A DNA stretch of 6,005 nt, taken from a virus. The stretch is from the IMG/VR virus record IMGVR_UViG_3300020030_000020, positions 1-6,005 of that record; one strand, written 5' to 3'. The position numbers and the translations under genes are program-made. Positions 1 through 6,005 of the stretch are shown in pieces. Position 1 is the first letter of the stretch; every line of letters begins with the position of its first letter. Below the pieces are notes generated by a model. It did not search any database. It was not told where the DNA came from and was given only the letters and a program-made list of their open reading frames with translations.

Positions 1-88
1 GGTCACTACTCTAGTGCCCTTTCCCTTCTTCTTTCGACGCGCTTTCATTGTGAGTCAAATCAGTGCTAAACATAAGAACAAGTGTATT
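1..88. repeat. Terminal direct repeat, copy 1 (circular-genome overlap)
   Basis: Bases 1-88 (ggtcactactctagtgccc...aagtgtatt) are identical base for base to 5918-6005. The window ends inside the repeat. This gives a unit length of 5917 nt, which is in the Microviridae size range. Confidence 0.95.
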
Positions 89-334
89 ATCGAAGAAATC
101 AATCGAAAAATCAGGATACGCGATCAGGGCCTCTATAAGGCTAGGAATACGACAATGACTGATATAGGGCGAAGCAGAGATACTAGAATACTCTACAAAA
201 TCAGAAATAGGAGTATGATCAAGAGCATTAAAAGGTAGTGTCGAAAACTGACCATCTTTAATACAACCTACCTGAAGAAAATCAACCTTAAGTGCAGGAT
301 TAATGCGACGGACAACAATATGAATCTGTGTCAT
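11..334 (-). CDS. Hypothetical protein ORF107 (acidic, no recognisable motif); last gene before the terminator
   Basis: This is a 107-aa ORF with its ATG at 332-334. Its start context (gtattattATG) is nearly the same as that of the lipoprotein gene (tttattattATG). It begins 23 nt after the ORF101 stop and does not overlap other main-frame genes. Its 3' end lies in the terminal repeat, so it is partly duplicated at 5928-6005. Confidence 0.6.
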   Translation of the reverse strand: MTQIHIVVRRINPALKVDFLQVGCIKDGQFSTLPFNALDHTPISDFVEYSSISASPYISHCRIPSLIEALIAYPDFSIDFFDNTLVLMFSTDLTHNESASKEEGKGH

Positions 335-357
335 AATAATACAATTTAACGTTTCAT

Positions 358-663
358 TTAGAGATTATTGTAAAAACACTTCCAAGCGTCAGACTGCTTG
401 ATCCAGAATTCGTAACCCTCAGGAGTTGAAGGAAACAGAAAAGCAGAGGAGATGAGGGACTCGGGGCCAAGGCTAGGCGTGCGATAAACATATCGGATGT
501 GATCACGCAAGCAGTCTCGAAAGGTCTTCCCAGCCGTAGGGATGCGGTCATAGTTCGTCCTATAGGCGGAAAATATTCCGCGACGGACGAGCCACTCAAC
601 GAATGCATACTCTATAACATCGAGTACTAAATTGTCAACTTTGGAATTTTTGTTCTTTTTCAT
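358..663 (-). CDS. Hypothetical basic protein ORF101
   Basis: This is a 101-aa ORF with its ATG at 661-663, about 27 nt downstream of a consensus Bacteroides-type -7 box. It has a Lys-rich N-terminus (MKKNKNSK) and an aromatic C-terminal segment (STPEGYEFWIKQSDAW). The composition looks protein-like, unlike the overlapping +1-frame ORF at 354-608. Confidence 0.6.
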   Translation of the reverse strand: MKKNKNSKVDNLVLDVIEYAFVEWLVRRGIFSAYRTNYDRIPTAGKTFRDCLRDHIRYVYRTPSLGPESLISSAFLFPSTPEGYEFWIKQSDAWKCFYNNL

Positions 664-689
664 AACAATACGGTTATTGGTTTACGAGG

Positions 690-720
690 CAAATATAACA
701 ACAAAAACTTAAAATGCAAA
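690..720 (-). promoter_or_regulatory. Candidate Bacteroidota sigma-AB type promoter (-33 TTTG / -7 TAnnTTTG)
   Basis: The minus strand from 720 down to 690 reads TTTG-cattttaagtttttgttgt-TATATTTG. That is TTTG, a 19-nt spacer, then TAnnTTTG. It lies in the 73-nt gap between the VP2 stop (737) and the ORF101 ATG (663). Confidence 0.45.
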
Positions 721-736
721 AAAAAAACCAACAATT

Positions 737-2110
737 TTAGCGAGAGTGTCGAGTAGTATTGTACGAACTAGAATGAGTACCACGAGTCATCTCCGTTTTC
801 GCATAACCAACAAGATTTCCTCTCGAGTCGTAACGAGTCGTGAGTGAAGAGCCGGCAGAATCACTGGTAGAACCGCCGGCAGAGATAGTCCTAGACGCAC
901 GGGACATGCCTCCACGGATGATGCCTGCACCGGTAATACTAGCGGCCGCGCCAACCAAGGCTTTAGAAATTTCAACATACGGATCAAGTTTTGCATTACG
1001 AAGGGCAATGCGAGCCTGTTCAGGGAGAAACTCAGAAGCATTCGCCTGATTTATAGCGGTCTTATCGTAAAAGTCCTTAAGAGACATAGAAACCTTAAAG
1101 GTTTTGGGACCAGGATTACCACGAGTAATAGGGTTGGAACTGCGAAGATTCCTTTCGTACTGAGGATTCGGAATTTCAACATCAAAACGCTTATCCCAGC
1201 TACGCGCAAACTCATTAGCAAGATCGAGATTATTAATGCGCTGTCCTGCCTCATTAGCGGAAGCAAGGCCAGAAAGAGCCGAGTTGAGAGTACTCTGTGT
1301 TTCAAGAACCAAAACCCGAGCCTTAACCAGGCGGTCGATGTACGTACCCTCAATACGAAGCTGCCTTAATTCTTCTTTGGCCGTATCAGCAAGTGCTTTA
1401 GATTCTTCAACACGGGCATCCATCGTAAGGGAGAGCAAAGTGCCATTAAGATCATTCAAAAGACGCTCGGACTTAAGGGCGGCAGCGGCCTCGATTTCCT
1501 TGTTAGCCAACGCTTCATCAACAGCCTTAGAGGCTTCAATACGAGCCCTATTAAACTCAGGTTCAAAGGTATTACTACGAATATTTGCAGCCTCGGCATC
1601 ATCACGAGCGGCGGCAGCCTTATTGCGCTCGATGGTTGAATTGACGCCCATGGCTTCAAGGGCGGTTCCAGCGGCGGCGGAACCAACACCAGGAGGCAGA
1701 GGACTAGAAAAATCAAAAGACCCGCCAGAAGGGCCAGAAGCGCCTACAGAACCAGCAGAGCCGCCAGACATAGTAGCATTGACGCCAACGCCCGAAGAGC
1801 CAAGGACGGCGGCGGGTGTAACGCCGGCCTTAAGATAACGATCGAAGACCTTAGAGGGATCATTGTAGGCGTTTTCGTAATCAAACTGTTTCTGCCAATT
1901 AGCGTAATTAATCTCGCCTTGTTTCTGCATCTGTTCAAGAGCATACTGCTGCTGAAGCTTCATTTGCTTCTGCTGATATTTCCACTGCCTCTTAAGGGAT
2001 GGCTTAAAAAGGCCAGAGGCAACCTGACCGCCAGCGGAAATGCCTGCAGCACCGAGTATAGCACCTGTGGAAACAGGCTCAATGTAGGACTTAAAATCGA
2101 TGAGTCTCAT
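737..2110 (-). CDS. VP2: Minor capsid / DNA pilot-like protein (VP2; phiX174 H analogue)
   Basis: This is a 457-aa ORF. It has an N-terminal Gly-zipper-like hydrophobic segment, TGAILGAAGISAGGQVASGLF (2006-2068). A Gly/Ser/Ala low-complexity stretch follows (1661-1804). Next comes a long Ala/Glu/Leu/Arg-rich region that looks helical (about 1211-1633), then a second Gly/Ser-rich tail. The architecture and position match microvirus pilot proteins. The call rests on composition and synteny, not on a conserved motif. Confidence 0.65.
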   Translation of the reverse strand: MRLIDFKSYIEPVSTGAILGAAGISAGGQVASGLFKPSLKRQWKYQQKQMKLQQQYALEQMQKQGEINYANWQKQFDYENAYNDPSKVFDRYLKAGVTPAAVLGSSGVGVNATMSGGSAGSVGASGPSGGSFDFSSPLPPGVGSAAAGTALEAMGVNSTIERNKAAAARDDAEAANIRSNTFEPEFNRARIEASKAVDEALANKEIEAAAALKSERLLNDLNGTLLSLTMDARVEESKALADTAKEELRQLRIEGTYIDRLVKARVLVLETQSTLNSALSGLASANEAGQRINNLDLANEFARSWDKRFDVEIPNPQYERNLRSSNPITRGNPGPKTFKVSMSLKDFYDKTAINQANASEFLPEQARIALRNAKLDPYVEISKALVGAAASITGAGIIRGGMSRASRTISAGGSTSDSAGSSLTTRYDSRGNLVGYAKTEMTRGTHSSSYNTTRHSR

Positions 2111-2111
2111 A

Positions 2112-2303
2112 TTACGGAAGAGTAAAATTATTCGAACGAATAATATAATCTACACGGACAGTATCAATATGAACGCCCGTCCGAGCAACCTTGGCCTGGG
2201 CAGAACACGAAGCGAGGAAAAAAGTCGCAAGAGCGGCAATGACGGACGAAACAAGCGTCCAAAAGGCTTTCGACTTGTAAAACGGCTGTTTAGTATCAGA
2301 CAT
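2112..2303 (-). CDS. Small predicted lipoprotein (63-aa precursor, about 31-aa mature peptide)
   Basis: I start this gene at the internal ATG (2301-2303) of the 100-aa track ORF. The product is MSDTKQPFYKSKAFW-TLVSSVIAALATFF-LASC-SAQAKV... It has a Lys-rich n-region, a hydrophobic h-region and the lipobox L-A-S-C. I verified the lipobox codons ctc gct tcg tgt at 2205-2216. The stop TAA (2112-2114) is 1 nt from the VP2 ATG. The start context is tttattattATG. Confidence 0.55.
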   Translation of the reverse strand: MSDTKQPFYKSKAFWTLVSSVIAALATFFLASCSAQAKVARTGVHIDTVRVDYIIRSNNFTLP

Positions 2304-2328
2304 AATAATAAAATTTAAAGAACGATAG

Positions 2329-2406
2329 AAAAATGCGCGGCCTCTCCTGCAGTCGTTACCAATAACCTTCAGCGATTCACGAACTCTCGCAGAAGGGGTC
2401 CGCGCA
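2329..2406 (-). other. Extended imperfect hairpin followed by T5 on the minus strand (candidate complementary-strand origin, attenuator or terminator)
   Basis: tgcgcgg (2334-2340) pairs perfectly with ccgcgca (2400-2406). Directly stacked on this, after a 1-nt bulge at 2399, cctctcctgc (2341-2350) pairs with gcagaagggg (2389-2398): 8 Watson-Crick pairs, 1 wobble and 1 mismatch. Then agtcg (2351-2355) pairs with cgaact (2380-2385), with one bulge. The apical loop is about 24 nt. An A5 run at 2329-2333 gives T5 right after the stem on the minus strand. The element sits in the largest non-coding gap (2304-2436). Confidence 0.6.
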
Positions 2407-2436
2407 CGTAACATATATCGTCTAGTAAAGAGAATA

Positions 2437-2733
2437 CTATTTTTCTTCAGTCTTAGGGGGGTTCGAAGCGGGCTTCGATCTATCTATCTCCGAATCAATA
2501 AGTTCCTGACCGACTTCGAGACCATCGAACTTGTCCATACGAGAGAATGAATTAGGGTCGAAGTCGATATCAGGGTTGAATTTCTCCCCCTTCTCAAAAT
2601 CAGAAGGTTCAAGTGCCACATCAGGACGACCAGGGAGAACATCGACAGTGCCAGAACCGTCAAGAACAGAAAGGATGCGTTGACCACGAGAAACATAAGC
2701 AGGAACATCTTCGAGAAGCCATTCAAGTGCCAT
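2437..2733 (-). CDS. Acidic 98-aa protein, possible internal scaffolding protein (VP3-like)
   Basis: The ORF starts 12 nt after the VP1 stop. I count about 22 Asp/Glu against 11 Lys/Arg. I recognise no motif. The scaffold assignment is by position, size and charge only. Confidence 0.4.
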   Translation of the reverse strand: MALEWLLEDVPAYVSRGQRILSVLDGSGTVDVLPGRPDVALEPSDFEKGEKFNPDIDFDPNSFSRMDKFDGLEVGQELIDSEIDRSKPASNPPKTEEK

Positions 2734-2745
2734 AAAATTAATGAA

Positions 2746-4545
2746 TTAGCGATTAGACAAACGAGTTGCAAACGTTTTATTAACAAGGTTCTTCTTCTGG
2801 ACAGCATAAGACATATTCACGAAGAAATTATCCTCAACGTTCGACTGAAAAGGAGAATTAACTTGAGCCAAATCAACGAAAAGAAGAGGGTAATAGCTAG
2901 CCTCAGGAAGAGAACCAGTTCCACTATAAGTATGAACAGTACGCTGCTGAACCCAATAAGAGTAGAGGGGGGCTACAGACCCACCTTCAGATTCCGGCAT
3001 ACTATAAGCCTGGAGCTGACCTAACACCTCATCATAAGAAGAACGGAACTCATTAAAACAAGGTTCGGTAGCAAATGAAGCCCCAGGATTGCCGTTAAAA
3101 GCGAGACGAAAAGAAGGAACATCTTGATATCCAATATCGTTATAAATGGGGTTAAAGTAATCAGAACCCATATAGTTGAGATAGTCCGGTTTAATAAAGG
3201 ACCAGTAATAAACAGGACGAATGCTCAACATATCAATCATATAACCAGGCTCACGAAAGTAATAAGACTGGCGACGGCCTAAACGATCATTGAAAGCAAT
3301 AGAGCCACCTTGCTGTCCAAGGGGTTGATTGCCAGAAAAATTATTATCCCCGGCTTGATTCATAACAATCTGCACATTAACAGTCTGCGAGGCACTGAAA
3401 AGAAGTTTTGGACGATCAACATGCTCAATTTTGGAAGCAAAGAACGTTTCCAACCAATCACTATAACGATTGCCTCCAGCACCAAGCAAGTCCTTGTATT
3501 CCTGAAGGCGGGAAGCAATGGCCAACTGAGGAATAGTAGTAACGCCCGTCATAGATACAGCCGAATTAGAGCCAGTGGGAATAAGACGACTAAAACGATC
3601 GGGATTCGACGGACATACAGCCATAGGATGCGCAGTAACGAAATAGGCAGCAGAACAATTGCCCGTAGAAGTAGTGGTAGGTAAAGTCTGGGAGAGAATA
3701 CCGGTTGAACCCCAAAGCGTAGAGGATGGATAAACCGAAGAAATGGGGAAACCATTACCGGAAGCAGCAGAACTATCCAGGTCAGAAGAAATTATCTGAG
3801 AGAACAAGTTACCACGATTAAAAGTATTATTCGAAGAAGTTACAGCCGACGGATAAAACTGACTCTCAAAATAAGAATCAAGATACTCGAGACTCCCGAA
3901 ACACTGCGTAAAAAAGCGAGAATTTCCAGAATTATCGGGATCGAGAGAATAAGTAGAACCAGCACGAATAACTTTGTTAGCCATGGGCCAAGCGAAAGAG
4001 TAAAGTCCCCACTGCGAATAACCATAGTAGTTACGGACGATGTCCCAATAAGCTAAATACGTGTCGGCGTTACTCCAACGATCCATAGAAGAATTAGCAG
4101 GAAGCATCACGGAGCTAGGAACAGAGGATATACCAGTAGTGTATTTATTAGCGATGCGCAACCAAGACATCAACGAATTAGTATAAGCCGCACCGAAGAA
4201 ATCACCATTCAAACCACCCGTTTGAGGTTGACAGGAGGCAATCCAATTAAGGCTCAGATCGTTCATGTCAAACTTACTACTATTCGTCCGCAACTCAGGA
4301 TGGTACAACTGGAGTGGTACCCAGAAACGATGAAGCCGAACAGTGTAGGGGTTAAACGTCGGAACAGCAAGAGGATTGCTGCGAACGTCAATACCCTGCT
4401 CAATAGAAACGCGGTCACGGGCATTAATAAAATCGATGCGCACGGGATACAAAATACCCGGCGTGCATGTAAAAGCTTTACTCTCAGGAACATCATAGCG
4501 AGAGTAGCCATTTACAGCGTGTGAAATGAAAGGTTGTTTTCCCAT
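2746..4545 (-). CDS. VP1: Major capsid protein (Microviridae VP1 / F-like)
   Basis: At 599 aa this is the largest ORF. Its ATG is 3 nt after the VP4 stop. The N-terminal segment FTCTPGILYPV...VSIEQG...RSNPLAVPTFNPYTVRLHRFWVPLQLY follows the pattern I recall from gokushovirus and Chlamydia-phage VP1 N-termini (T-x-D-x-G-x-L-x-P ... P-x-x-x-x-x-L ... FFVPxRLxW). Confidence 0.9.
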   Translation of the reverse strand: MGKQPFISHAVNGYSRYDVPESKAFTCTPGILYPVRIDFINARDRVSIEQGIDVRSNPLAVPTFNPYTVRLHRFWVPLQLYHPELRTNSSKFDMNDLSLNWIASCQPQTGGLNGDFFGAAYTNSLMSWLRIANKYTTGISSVPSSVMLPANSSMDRWSNADTYLAYWDIVRNYYGYSQWGLYSFAWPMANKVIRAGSTYSLDPDNSGNSRFFTQCFGSLEYLDSYFESQFYPSAVTSSNNTFNRGNLFSQIISSDLDSSAASGNGFPISSVYPSSTLWGSTGILSQTLPTTTSTGNCSAAYFVTAHPMAVCPSNPDRFSRLIPTGSNSAVSMTGVTTIPQLAIASRLQEYKDLLGAGGNRYSDWLETFFASKIEHVDRPKLLFSASQTVNVQIVMNQAGDNNFSGNQPLGQQGGSIAFNDRLGRRQSYYFREPGYMIDMLSIRPVYYWSFIKPDYLNYMGSDYFNPIYNDIGYQDVPSFRLAFNGNPGASFATEPCFNEFRSSYDEVLGQLQAYSMPESEGGSVAPLYSYWVQQRTVHTYSGTGSLPEASYYPLLFVDLAQVNSPFQSNVEDNFFVNMSYAVQKKNLVNKTFATRLSNR

Positions 4546-4548
4546 AAA

Positions 4549-5619
4549 TTAAATAATTAGTTGAAGTTTATAATGATCTCTCCAAAATTGAAGAATATCC
4601 TCATCTAGCCAAGTAGGGGGGTCAAAATCGGGCATCCTCCGAGAAGACGCAGAAAAACGCATTATTTGCTTTTGTTCCCACGTATACGACGCTCTACTGG
4701 ATACGGCGGAATTGAGGGAGAACCGCTCAACGCACAAAGACACAATACGCTTAACCAGAGAAGACTTGCTAAAACGTGCATAAGCGTCAGCAGCAGCAAT
4801 CGAACGCATGACCTCGTCTTCCGATTTAAAATACTTAAAATAGTATCGAGGAATCGAGTAATTATAATTGATACGCCTCGAAAAATCGAAATAAGACCAC
4901 GACGCGACACAAGCAGAAGGGCGAGGCATATAACCAAGAAAATCACCAACGCCAGCAGATACGAATTTTCGCGTATAACGGCGATGTTGGAGGAGGACAG
5001 ATAAAGGCGTAAGATTTCCATTTACAGTAACGTATTTGTCCGAAATTTCTTCGGGATTAAACTGAATTTGTTTAGTAACATACTTAACACAATAACGAGC
5101 CCGCTTATGAGTGGCCTTCGCTAGCCATAAAAAACCGAGATCTCGAACGGCGGCGCGAATGGTGTTGTAAAGAACGTTTGTCCCAAACAAGAATCCATGA
5201 AAATGCAAGCGAGGTTCGTTTCCCGTTTCGGGATGAGTACCGAATTCTTGGAAAAAAGCATGTTTAAATGAATGGCCAAGTTTGTGCCGCAACCGCTCGT
5301 TGAAACGACGAATGAATCGAGAAGGATCAAGTAGAGCCTCATCATAATACTTCGGGGCAATTGTAATTGTAACAAAAATAGCCTGCTGACTATCAGCTTT
5401 ACAACGGGTTAGCTCGCGCTCTAAACGAATGAACCAGTCATTACGCTGACGACGCAAACAGTCTTCGCACCTTCCACATGGGACCATCAGCCATTGACGG
5501 GCAACATCCCAGGGACGAAGGGCGAGGGCAGACTTAGCGACATCAGAACCGTTACGACAAGGATTTTTCTTGTCAAAATAACGGCGATTTCGTATCCATA
5601 TGGGAGAAGAGCAGGGCAT
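4549..5619 (-). CDS. VP4: Rolling-circle replication initiation protein (Microviridae VP4 / phiX174 gpA-like, HUH superfamily)
   Basis: This is a 356-aa ORF. Motif 1 is FVTITI (5359-5376). The HUH motif is HFHGFLF (5185-5205; codons verified). The two-tyrosine motif is YCVKYVTK (5071-5094; codons verified), with Y-x3-Y spacing as in phiX174 gpA. The N-terminus has the Cys cluster VPCGRCEDCLRRQRNDW, typical of microvirus VP4. Confidence 0.93.
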   Translation of the reverse strand: MPCSSPIWIRNRRYFDKKNPCRNGSDVAKSALALRPWDVARQWLMVPCGRCEDCLRRQRNDWFIRLERELTRCKADSQQAIFVTITIAPKYYDEALLDPSRFIRRFNERLRHKLGHSFKHAFFQEFGTHPETGNEPRLHFHGFLFGTNVLYNTIRAAVRDLGFLWLAKATHKRARYCVKYVTKQIQFNPEEISDKYVTVNGNLTPLSVLLQHRRYTRKFVSAGVGDFLGYMPRPSACVASWSYFDFSRRINYNYSIPRYYFKYFKSEDEVMRSIAAADAYARFSKSSLVKRIVSLCVERFSLNSAVSSRASYTWEQKQIMRFSASSRRMPDFDPPTWLDEDILQFWRDHYKLQLII

Positions 5620-5819
5620 TAAAAAAAGCTTTTAAGGCAATCAAACTTAATATAAGGATTAGTACGACGACAACGAGTAAGATAGTCATTCGCAGGGCGT
5701 TCCTCGGCAAACCAAGCGATAGTAACTCGCTTTTTACCGCGGTATGCGCCGACAGAATAGCGATAAGAAACACTGTCAATAATAGGGGAGAATCTAGGCC
5801 TGAAATCGAAATTGTCCAT
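5619..5819 (-). CDS. Small basic protein ORF66, translationally coupled to VP4
   Basis: This is a 66-aa ORF with about 13 Lys/Arg against 7 Asp/Glu. It is the first ORF after the terminator and intergenic region, with start context ttaaattATG. Its stop overlaps the VP4 start as TAATG (5617-5621). Confidence 0.55.
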   Translation of the reverse strand: MDNFDFRPRFSPIIDSVSYRYSVGAYRGKKRVTIAWFAEERPANDYLTRCRRTNPYIKFDCLKSFF

Positions 5820-5846
5820 AATTTAAAAACATTACTCTACACTTTT

Positions 5847-5884
5847 AAAAAAAAGTCTGCGAGAGATTTTTCTCCCGCAGGACT
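5847..5884 (-). terminator. Rho-independent terminator on the minus strand
   Basis: The minus strand reads agtcCTGCGGGAGA-aaaa-TCTCTCGCAGAct followed by a T-run. The stem pairs 5854-5866 with 5871-5884: 13 pairs, one bulge (g5880), and one position that is a G-T wobble on the minus strand but an A-C mismatch on the plus strand. The loop is 4 nt (5867-5870). An A8 run at 5847-5854 on the plus strand gives the trailing T tract on the minus strand. It lies 43 nt downstream of the ORF107 stop across the circle junction. Confidence 0.7.
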
Positions 5885-5917
5885 AACGAGTTAAAGAACT
5901 CTTCCACCAAGCGGGCG

Positions 5918-6005
5918 GGTCACTACTCTAGTGCCCTTTCCCTTCTTCTTTCGACGCGCTTTCATTGTGAGTCAAATCAGTGCTAAACATAAGAACAAGT
6001 GTATT
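5918..6005. repeat. Terminal direct repeat, copy 2 (circular-genome overlap)
   Basis: This copy is identical to 1-88. It contains a duplicate of the last 25 codons plus stop of ORF107 (5928-6005). Confidence 0.95.

Follow-up and report, generated by a model that had tools for sequence, protein, structure and literature searches.

The exit of microviruses other than phiX174 is largely unknown, and microviruses are among the most abundant phages of the mammalian gut. A candidate is offered by a small locus in the window, which is the whole stretch of 6,005 nucleotides analysed here (positions 1 to 6,005 of IMG/VR virus record IMGVR_UViG_3300020030_000020). A preliminary description, made from the letters of the DNA, had singled out an open reading frame (ORF) of 63 codons as a stand-alone gene for a very small lipoprotein and as a candidate lysis or superinfection-exclusion factor. 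Three points have to be settled in turn: whether the ORF is a gene, whether its product is a lipoprotein and what such a peptide could do for the virus. A global survey of microviruses reports peptidases and methyltransferases as accessory genes, omits overprinted genes and leaves most proteins of ~65 aa without assigned function (PMC9239249). The preliminary description knew of no lysis or exclusion lipoprotein in Microviridae, and full-text literature searches bear this out since they returned no description of a microvirus lipoprotein. As far as we could find, the proteins presented below make up a family of small phage lipoproteins which is new and lacks annotation, and no other lipoprotein has been noted in Microviridae before.

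Genome organization

The window is a complete microvirus genome in which every sizeable gene lies on the minus strand. Rep/VP4 occupies 4549–5619 and the major capsid protein VP1 2746–4545. They are accompanied by an acidic scaffold-like gene of 98 aa at 2437–2733 (codon-position pattern 0.27/0.11/0.92; no family match), the upstream neighbour of the 63-codon ORF. The coupled downstream neighbour is the gene of the DNA pilot protein VP2 at 737–2110, which matches the pilot protein family phrog_8689 (E 3e-11) and is annotated as VP2 in relatives. Three further small ORFs are found at 358–663, 11–334 and 5619–5819, also on the minus strand. The closest GenBank records are unclassified Microviridae from faeces of pig, civet, rodent, lemur and tortoise. 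Family searches detected no muralytic, holin or other lysis domain in any ORF of the window.

The predicted lipoprotein

The ORF lies at 2112–2303 on the minus strand, stop included. It runs from an ATG at 2303–2301 to a TAA at 2114–2112 and encodes MSDTKQPFYKSKAFWTLVSSVIAALATFFLASCSAQAKVARTGVHIDTVRVDYIIRSNNFTLP. Residues 1–32 (2208–2303, minus strand) form a predicted signal peptide with an n-region MSDTKQPFYKSK of net charge +2, an h-region AFWTLVSSVIAALATFF and the lipobox L-A-S. The putative site of lipidation and cleavage is Cys33 (codon at 2205–2207, minus strand), a position which carries Cys in 176 of 178 family proteins. Cleavage would release a mature peptide of 31 aa in which Cys33 is the sole cysteine. 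The rest of this peptide, residues 34–63 (2115–2204, minus strand), comprises a variable tether, SAQAKVART, and a predicted β-hairpin core, GVHIDTVRVDYIIRSNN.

The PROSITE pattern PS51257, {DERK}(6)-[LIVMFWSTAG](2)-[LIVMFYSTAGCQ]-[AGS]-C, places the cysteine at positions 15–35 and asks for a K or R within the first seven residues. The product conforms to it through AALATFFLASC, Cys33 and K5. In the dinucleotide shuffles of the window, ORFs satisfying the rule arise by chance at 0.11 per shuffle, with at least one in 31 of 300 shuffles. The motif by itself therefore stands only weakly above chance, as a rule-positive ORF turns up in about a tenth of the shuffles, and the gene and its lipobox become solid because they are conserved across relatives. 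AlphaFold2 predicts a confident helix over residues 12–34 (pLDDT about 95) and, with low confidence, two short strands in the mature part. Searches of Pfam, NCBIfam, PHROGs, PADLOC and PDB sequences gave nothing significant for the lipoprotein.

Taken together, the PS51257 rule and the comparative evidence make the assignment as a predicted SPII-type prolipoprotein well supported, with the limits that the h-region is long (residues 13–32 are 20 uncharged residues, i.e. the 17-residue core plus L-A-S, with a peak Kyte–Doolittle value of 1.99) and that Cys33 is near the upper bound of the rule. The type II signal of the preliminary description thus holds in each of its elements (LAS before C33, a 17-residue core, a Lys-containing n-region), and its estimate of about 31 aa for the mature peptide agrees with the computed length. 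The first acidic residue is located 14 positions past the Cys, so that the earlier remark on the missing acidic export signal stands as well.

Conservation and coding capacity

The preliminary description had proposed to look for a small lipobox ORF upstream of VP2 in related microviruses. Such an ORF is intact in all of the 85 related genomes which form our comparison set, and it has exactly 63 codons in each. In every one of them a lipobox in agreement with PS51257 ends at Cys33 (LSSC in 42 genomes, LASC in 40, LTSC in two and LVSC in one). Substitutions fall mainly on third codon positions (codon-position entropy 0.26/0.14/1.08), and dN/dS is 0.07 for the whole ORF and 0.01 for residues 43–58, the hairpin core. 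Rep and the scaffold gene are equally constrained, whereas the three other small ORFs are less so. An alignment of 23 diverse members (A2) leaves only the Cys and D47 invariant. Only S, G or A occurs directly before the Cys (position −1); G43 and H45, like D47, are invariant or nearly so, and K12, F14, W15 and T16 are nearly invariant.

The junction with VP2 (TAA T ATG, 2108–2114, minus strand; VP2 ATG at 2110–2108) is equally constant. The stop codon itself varies between TAA, TAG and TGA, and the single-base spacer is kept in 85 of 85 genomes, in line with the coupling to VP2 proposed earlier. Judged from codon-level conservation, the comparison shows the 63-codon ORF to be a real gene, as the preliminary description had it. 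The gene's 'own slot' needs to be qualified: it is free-standing in the clade of the window, whereas in other lineages the gene is found just upstream of Rep.

Start codon and upstream element

Public records carry a longer product. Their annotations take an upstream ATG (window 2414), which yields a 100-aa protein (2112–2414) with a cytoplasmic N-terminal extension of 37 residues. Gene callers give 100 aa for 119 of the 120 closest database proteins, and the upstream ATG is in frame in 66 of 85 genomes. However, it is absent in 18 of the 85 and displaced to −141 in a 19th. These genomes have stops one to four codons before the short-form Met1, 1-nt indels or insertions of 21–90 nt, and distant homologues start at the short-form Met. 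The 111 nt concerned (37 codons) show a flat codon-position entropy of 0.24/0.24/0.27, and compensatory base-pair changes occur within the presumed extension. Stops, indels, flat periodicity and RNA covariation rule out the 100-aa product, which we regard as scarcely credible; the start codon of the preliminary description is the correct one. The correction from 100 to 63 aa concerns hundreds of database entries and is independent of function.

The upstream 111 nt are far more conserved than the synonymous sites of the ORF. They contain a putative structured non-coding element (2329–2414, minus strand) composed of an invariant, GC-rich outer stem (2397–2406 paired with 2334–2342), a covarying inner hairpin (2387–2396 paired with 2366–2375) and a T5 run (2329–2333). 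In the inner hairpin, five pairs show compensatory changes (29 cells; a value reached in none of 500 shuffles). A mutually exclusive alternative pairing (alignment columns 42–85) also covaries, at one pair, which suggests two conformations of the element. Rfam returned no match. The element looks like a partial terminator, which would set the lipoprotein–VP2 pair apart from the plentiful transcripts for capsid and scaffold; alternatively, it could serve as a single-strand origin. A conserved, structured and presumably regulatory element is thus uncovered alongside the lipoprotein gene.

Some individual records deserve mention. In L001–L004 (MG945664, MG945456, MG945455 and MG945141) the hairpin element has been translated as the first 37 residues of the protein. 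The lipoprotein–VP2 fusion of MG945498-type records is an annotation artefact, in which the VP2 ORF has been extended upstream over the lipoprotein gene in another frame. Seven genomes (L058, L068, L078–L081 and L084) carry a GC-rich insertion of 21–90 nt exactly where the hairpin element gives way to the ATG of the lipoprotein gene, and these insertions bear inverted repeats of their own, e.g. GGCGAGGTGTCGCATTTCGCGGTTCGGAGAACCGCCCCGAACG.

Distribution and hosts

Relatives were also retrieved through VP1, independently of the lipoprotein gene. All but one of the 80 genomes obtained in this way (66–91% VP1 identity) have the gene (79/80), and the one without it is a truncated contig. In lineages at 37–42% VP1 identity the family is absent and no convincing lipobox ORF was seen. 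Searched with a profile, 1.84 billion representative proteins yield 59 family clusters at 50% identity, and tblastn finds the family in 44 GenBank microviruses. Outside the clade of the window the gene lies just upstream of Rep, either as a short form of 62–66 aa (L091, L088) or as a long form of about 195 aa (L085–L087, L164, L177–L183).

A scan of 185,579 species genomes, for which a narrower alignment (A3) was used, returned no more than two loci, each of them a microvirus prophage in an Alistipes genome. The first, L087, is located in Alistipes montrealensis (NZ_JAGYXY010000001, about 5900–10800) and has the order lipoprotein, Rep, VP1, small acidic ORF and VP2; the second, L088, belongs to an Alistipes metagenome-assembled genome (CALLRW010000041, about 5887–9260). 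Rep and VP1 are adjacent in both, and VP2 was confirmed in L087. An XRE-like HTH gene lies just upstream of L087 (5101–5565). The GC content is 0.43 in the prophage and 0.52 in the flank. Since these two prophages carry the family, its hosts are Bacteroidales. The clade of the window itself has no prophage in any of the 185,579 species genomes, an absence that points to a lytic lifestyle.

Exchange of leaders and mature domains

The family includes two subtypes of the mature domain. Type 1, to which the window belongs, reads ...GVHIDTVRVDYIIRSNNF; type 2 reads ...RHYVVQSASS..GDTTRTTITYEQIGNFKRP and, in relatives which tblastn had missed, lies at the corresponding place before VP2. An N-terminal alignment (A5) was used in the search for the family. 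Between the subtypes, the h-region and the lipobox are the most conserved segment (74% identical) and the mature part is 18% identical. Taken alone, this comparison would make the helix seem the active part of the protein.

The leaders themselves are exchangeable. Three unrelated signal peptides, of the KKFWTL-, LPPWARI- and RRWCRNLLLV-type, are combined differently with the mature subtypes, and each of them ends in a lipobox. In the Alistipes prophage L088 the type-1 mature domain stands behind an unrelated leader, LPPWARISVIALLAALAVVLSLTSC, and a similar leader is found in P0154; a type-2-like domain follows the third leader, RRWCRNLLLVLFVVSVFASC, in L240. What stays constant across leaders is [S/G/A]-Cys at the junction of signal and mature domain. 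Of the evidence obtained here, this natural swapping argues most strongly for lipidation at the Cys and for the exported peptide as the functional part. That the junction Cys is always kept behind unrelated leaders argues strongly for a true lipoprotein, as far as comparison of sequences can tell.

Long homologues

The long homologues of about 195 aa are found in L085 (634–1218), L086 (1512–2114) and L087 (5935–6585) and also in L164, L177–L179, L183 and L192. They are built of the lipoprotein module, a spacer, a hydrophobic segment and a polybasic tail. The spacer consists of about 110 codons rich in Ser, Leu, Pro and Phe, which are nearly unconstrained (0.97/0.89/1.12) and open in 26 divergent clusters. 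The hydrophobic segment measures 11–18 residues and contains a proline (15-aa Kyte–Doolittle 1.1–2.4). The tail has a charge of +7 to +11, reads RRGGRRG..PK.K.IPLGGSHL in most members and is under purifying selection (0.29/0.26/0.78); its motif was not found as an ORF of its own in the short-form genomes.

The long-form extension is overlapped by a further ORF, in a different frame, in L086 (1703–2104) and L087 (6168–6575). This ORF showed no supporting periodicity in an alignment which is noisy in this region.

An overprinted membrane ORF in Rep

A second candidate for an envelope function is embedded in the Rep/VP4 gene. ORF119 (4662–5021, minus strand; PPYPVERRIRGNKSK) encodes 119 aa with two to three TM-like segments and a basic C-tail, and has no match to a known family. 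The entropy of synonymous sites in Rep falls from ~0.9 to 0.19–0.60 over roughly 5094–4645, closely matching ORF119. The ORF starts with ATG and is open in 177 of 177 relatives, and it has exactly 119 codons' worth of product, i.e. 119 aa, in 161. It is confined to the sub-lineage with a Rep of 356 aa, whereas the lipoprotein family is broader. We consider the predicted product a strong rival, a candidate E/K-like membrane or lysis protein. Because ORF119 also encodes a predicted membrane protein, lysis cannot be assigned to the lipoprotein by elimination.

Another ORF of E-like appearance, hydrophobic, 107 aa long and in an alternative frame (2484–2807, minus strand), extends over the end of VP1 and the scaffold-like gene, but it is probably no gene, as the third positions of the scaffold gene vary freely (0.92).

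Possible functions of the lipopeptide

We tentatively favour a late, envelope-directed role of the lipoprotein in lysis and release or in disruption of the outer membrane, a reading that falls somewhat short of an even chance, over superinfection exclusion. The precursor would be inserted by Sec, lipidated at Cys33 by Lgt and cleaved before this residue by LspA. The product would be a 31-residue lipopeptide on the periplasm-facing membrane leaflet of a Bacteroidales host, with a variable 9-residue tether carrying the near-invariant hairpin. Late and modest expression can be inferred from the partial-terminator-like hairpin and T-run upstream together with translation alongside VP2. The lipopeptide may then act in a spanin-like manner on the outer membrane, or it may interfere in the periplasm with the upkeep of wall or envelope. 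In sister lineages this task could fall to the homologues of about 195 aa, each a single chain anchored in both membranes. For this role speak the core-gene status within the clade, the extreme constraint, the lack of a muralytic enzyme and the spanin-like long forms. Against it stand the lack of an endolysin/holin cassette and of an i-spanin partner, the rival ORF119 and the absence of the family from related lineages. Unlike the window, the one Bacteroides microvirus in culture, phiHBP1, encodes an M15 peptidase (PMC13064476). The wider claim that the family is the missing endolysin-free, lipoprotein-based lysis system of the Bacteroidales microvirus lineage appears unlikely to us.

If the lipopeptide did not serve release, it might protect the infected cell. 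By binding an outer-membrane receptor or the insertion site of the VP2 tube, a periplasm-facing lipopeptide would mask the cell to related microviruses, and progeny might also be spared inactivation on cell debris, as with T5 Llp and Cor for FhuA. Superinfection or entry exclusion of this kind is possible but doubtful. The size and class of the peptide match the known exclusion lipoproteins, the presence of the family in two Alistipes prophages is a setting where a conversion gene would make sense, and the distribution over the wider lineage is patchy. The mature domain evolves fast between subtypes relative to the signal, which fits exclusion at least as well as lysis, and the reshuffling of signal and mature modules resembles an arms race at a surface. 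Within the clade, however, the hairpin core is almost frozen (dN/dS 0.01) and shows no diversification; the gene behaves as a core gene (79/80), unlike a moron of sporadic occurrence; the species genomes scanned contained no prophage of this clade; and the C-terminal anchor and polybasic tail of the long forms are hard to reconcile with receptor blocking. A PNAS article of 2021 by Kirchberger is said, by its title, to deal with microvirus exclusion via hypervariable regions, reportedly of the pilot protein, which would also speak against exclusion by a lipoprotein.

The remaining alternatives place the activity elsewhere. The protein could stay uncleaved as a bitopic membrane protein whose helix binds a wall-synthesis enzyme, like the E-type 'protein antibiotics', with the Cys at the membrane interface for some other reason. 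To our knowledge, the well-studied small single-gene lysis proteins (phiX174 E, phage M Lys) all act through membrane segments. The unusually long h-region, its identity of 74% between subtypes where the mature part has 18%, the nearly invariant K12, F14, W15 and T16 and the single confident helix over residues 12–34 all suit such a helix. Nevertheless, we hold this very unlikely: the same mature domain occurs behind two other unrelated hydrophobic leaders (L088/P0154 and L240), and the KKFWTL helix is for this reason dispensable for the function of the family. In addition, an invariant [S/G/A]-Cys where signal and mature part meet is what marks a lipobox, and the hairpin core is constrained even more than the helix. 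Quite unlikely, too, is a non-lytic accessory role in the envelope, in which the lipoprotein would tether or chaperone VP2 or the procapsid, or modulate envelope stress, and ORF119 would carry out lysis. Translational coupling with VP2 in 85 of 85 genomes and the credibility of ORF119 as an independent lysis candidate fit this proposal. Yet the gene adjoins Rep instead of VP2 elsewhere, homologues of ORF119 are absent from the Rep-upstream lineages which keep the lipoprotein, and microvirus assembly is cytoplasmic whereas the peptide is predicted to be exported.

The consequences differ between the two main readings. If lysis is correct, the lipopeptide would strike the Bacteroidota envelope at a weak point that can be reached from the periplasm. 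Under the wider claim of an endolysin-free lysis system, the short form would be the first lipoprotein among single-gene factors of lysis or outer-membrane disruption. If the protein is an exclusion factor, it would represent a new mechanism for microviruses. The lipoprotein offers several handles, namely Cys33, the GVHIDTVRVDYIIRS hairpin, leader swaps and the comparison of short and long forms, with ORF119 as a second candidate. The existence of short and long forms makes both the spanin and the exclusion question experimentally tractable.

Comparison with known systems

Small lipoproteins of mobile elements which block related elements from the periplasmic side include T5 Llp, Cor of phi80 and N15, and TrbK of RP4. 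The protein of the window shares with them the class of small lipoproteins and a similar precursor size, but its mature peptide is about half the size of that of Llp. No significant match to Llp or Cor was found in PHROG, PADLOC or PDB searches; the best E-values, 0.003–0.09, were confined to the leader.

The lysis protein E of phiX174 is overprinted in gene D, has no lipobox, adopts an N-out/C-in topology and acts on MraY through its transmembrane domain. Like E, the window's protein is a small, membrane-targeted microvirus protein with a conserved hydrophobic N-terminal helix and no muralytic enzyme beside it. In contrast to E, its gene is free-standing with free third positions and no sign of an overlapping constraint, a lipobox is present and the leader can be exchanged. 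The feature of the window genome that corresponds to E is rather ORF119 inside Rep.

Canonical spanins act only after the endolysin has removed the wall. An o-spanin such as lambda Rz1 resembles the short form, as predicted here, in being a late, periplasmic phage lipoprotein of the outer membrane with a precursor of ~60 aa and a mature part of 30–40 aa. Rz1 is proline-rich and largely unstructured, forms disulfide-linked dimers through a periplasmic Cys and has a paired i-spanin gene, in which it is often embedded, within a holin–endolysin cassette (PMC6139136). By contrast, the window's mature peptide is a predicted β-hairpin without an additional Cys for a covalent homodimer (a Cys that most but not all o-spanins have), the window contains no holin–endolysin cassette and the sequences are not similar. 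No i-spanin-like ORF adjoins or overlaps the lipoprotein gene, and besides that gene just one membrane ORF was seen, the multi-TM ORF119 inside Rep.

The long forms recall the u-spanins of the T1 gp11 type, in which one chain begins with a lipoprotein signal, crosses the periplasm as a spacer and ends in a hydrophobic anchor (PMC6139136). The resemblance is only architectural because their hydrophobic segment is short (11–18 residues), contains proline and is followed by the +7 to +11 tail, because their unconstrained spacer contains Cys, whereas a periplasmic Cys occurs in none of the 58 known u-spanins (PMC6139136), and because an endolysin partner is missing; the window's own protein has no C-terminal anchor. 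Kongari et al. (2018) considered a descent of u-spanins from o-spanins by C-terminal extension speculative, with no homologous pair known. Should the family prove to be such an endolysin-free lysis system, the short and long forms described here would be the first documented pair of an o-spanin-like and a u-spanin-like protein with common ancestry by such an extension.
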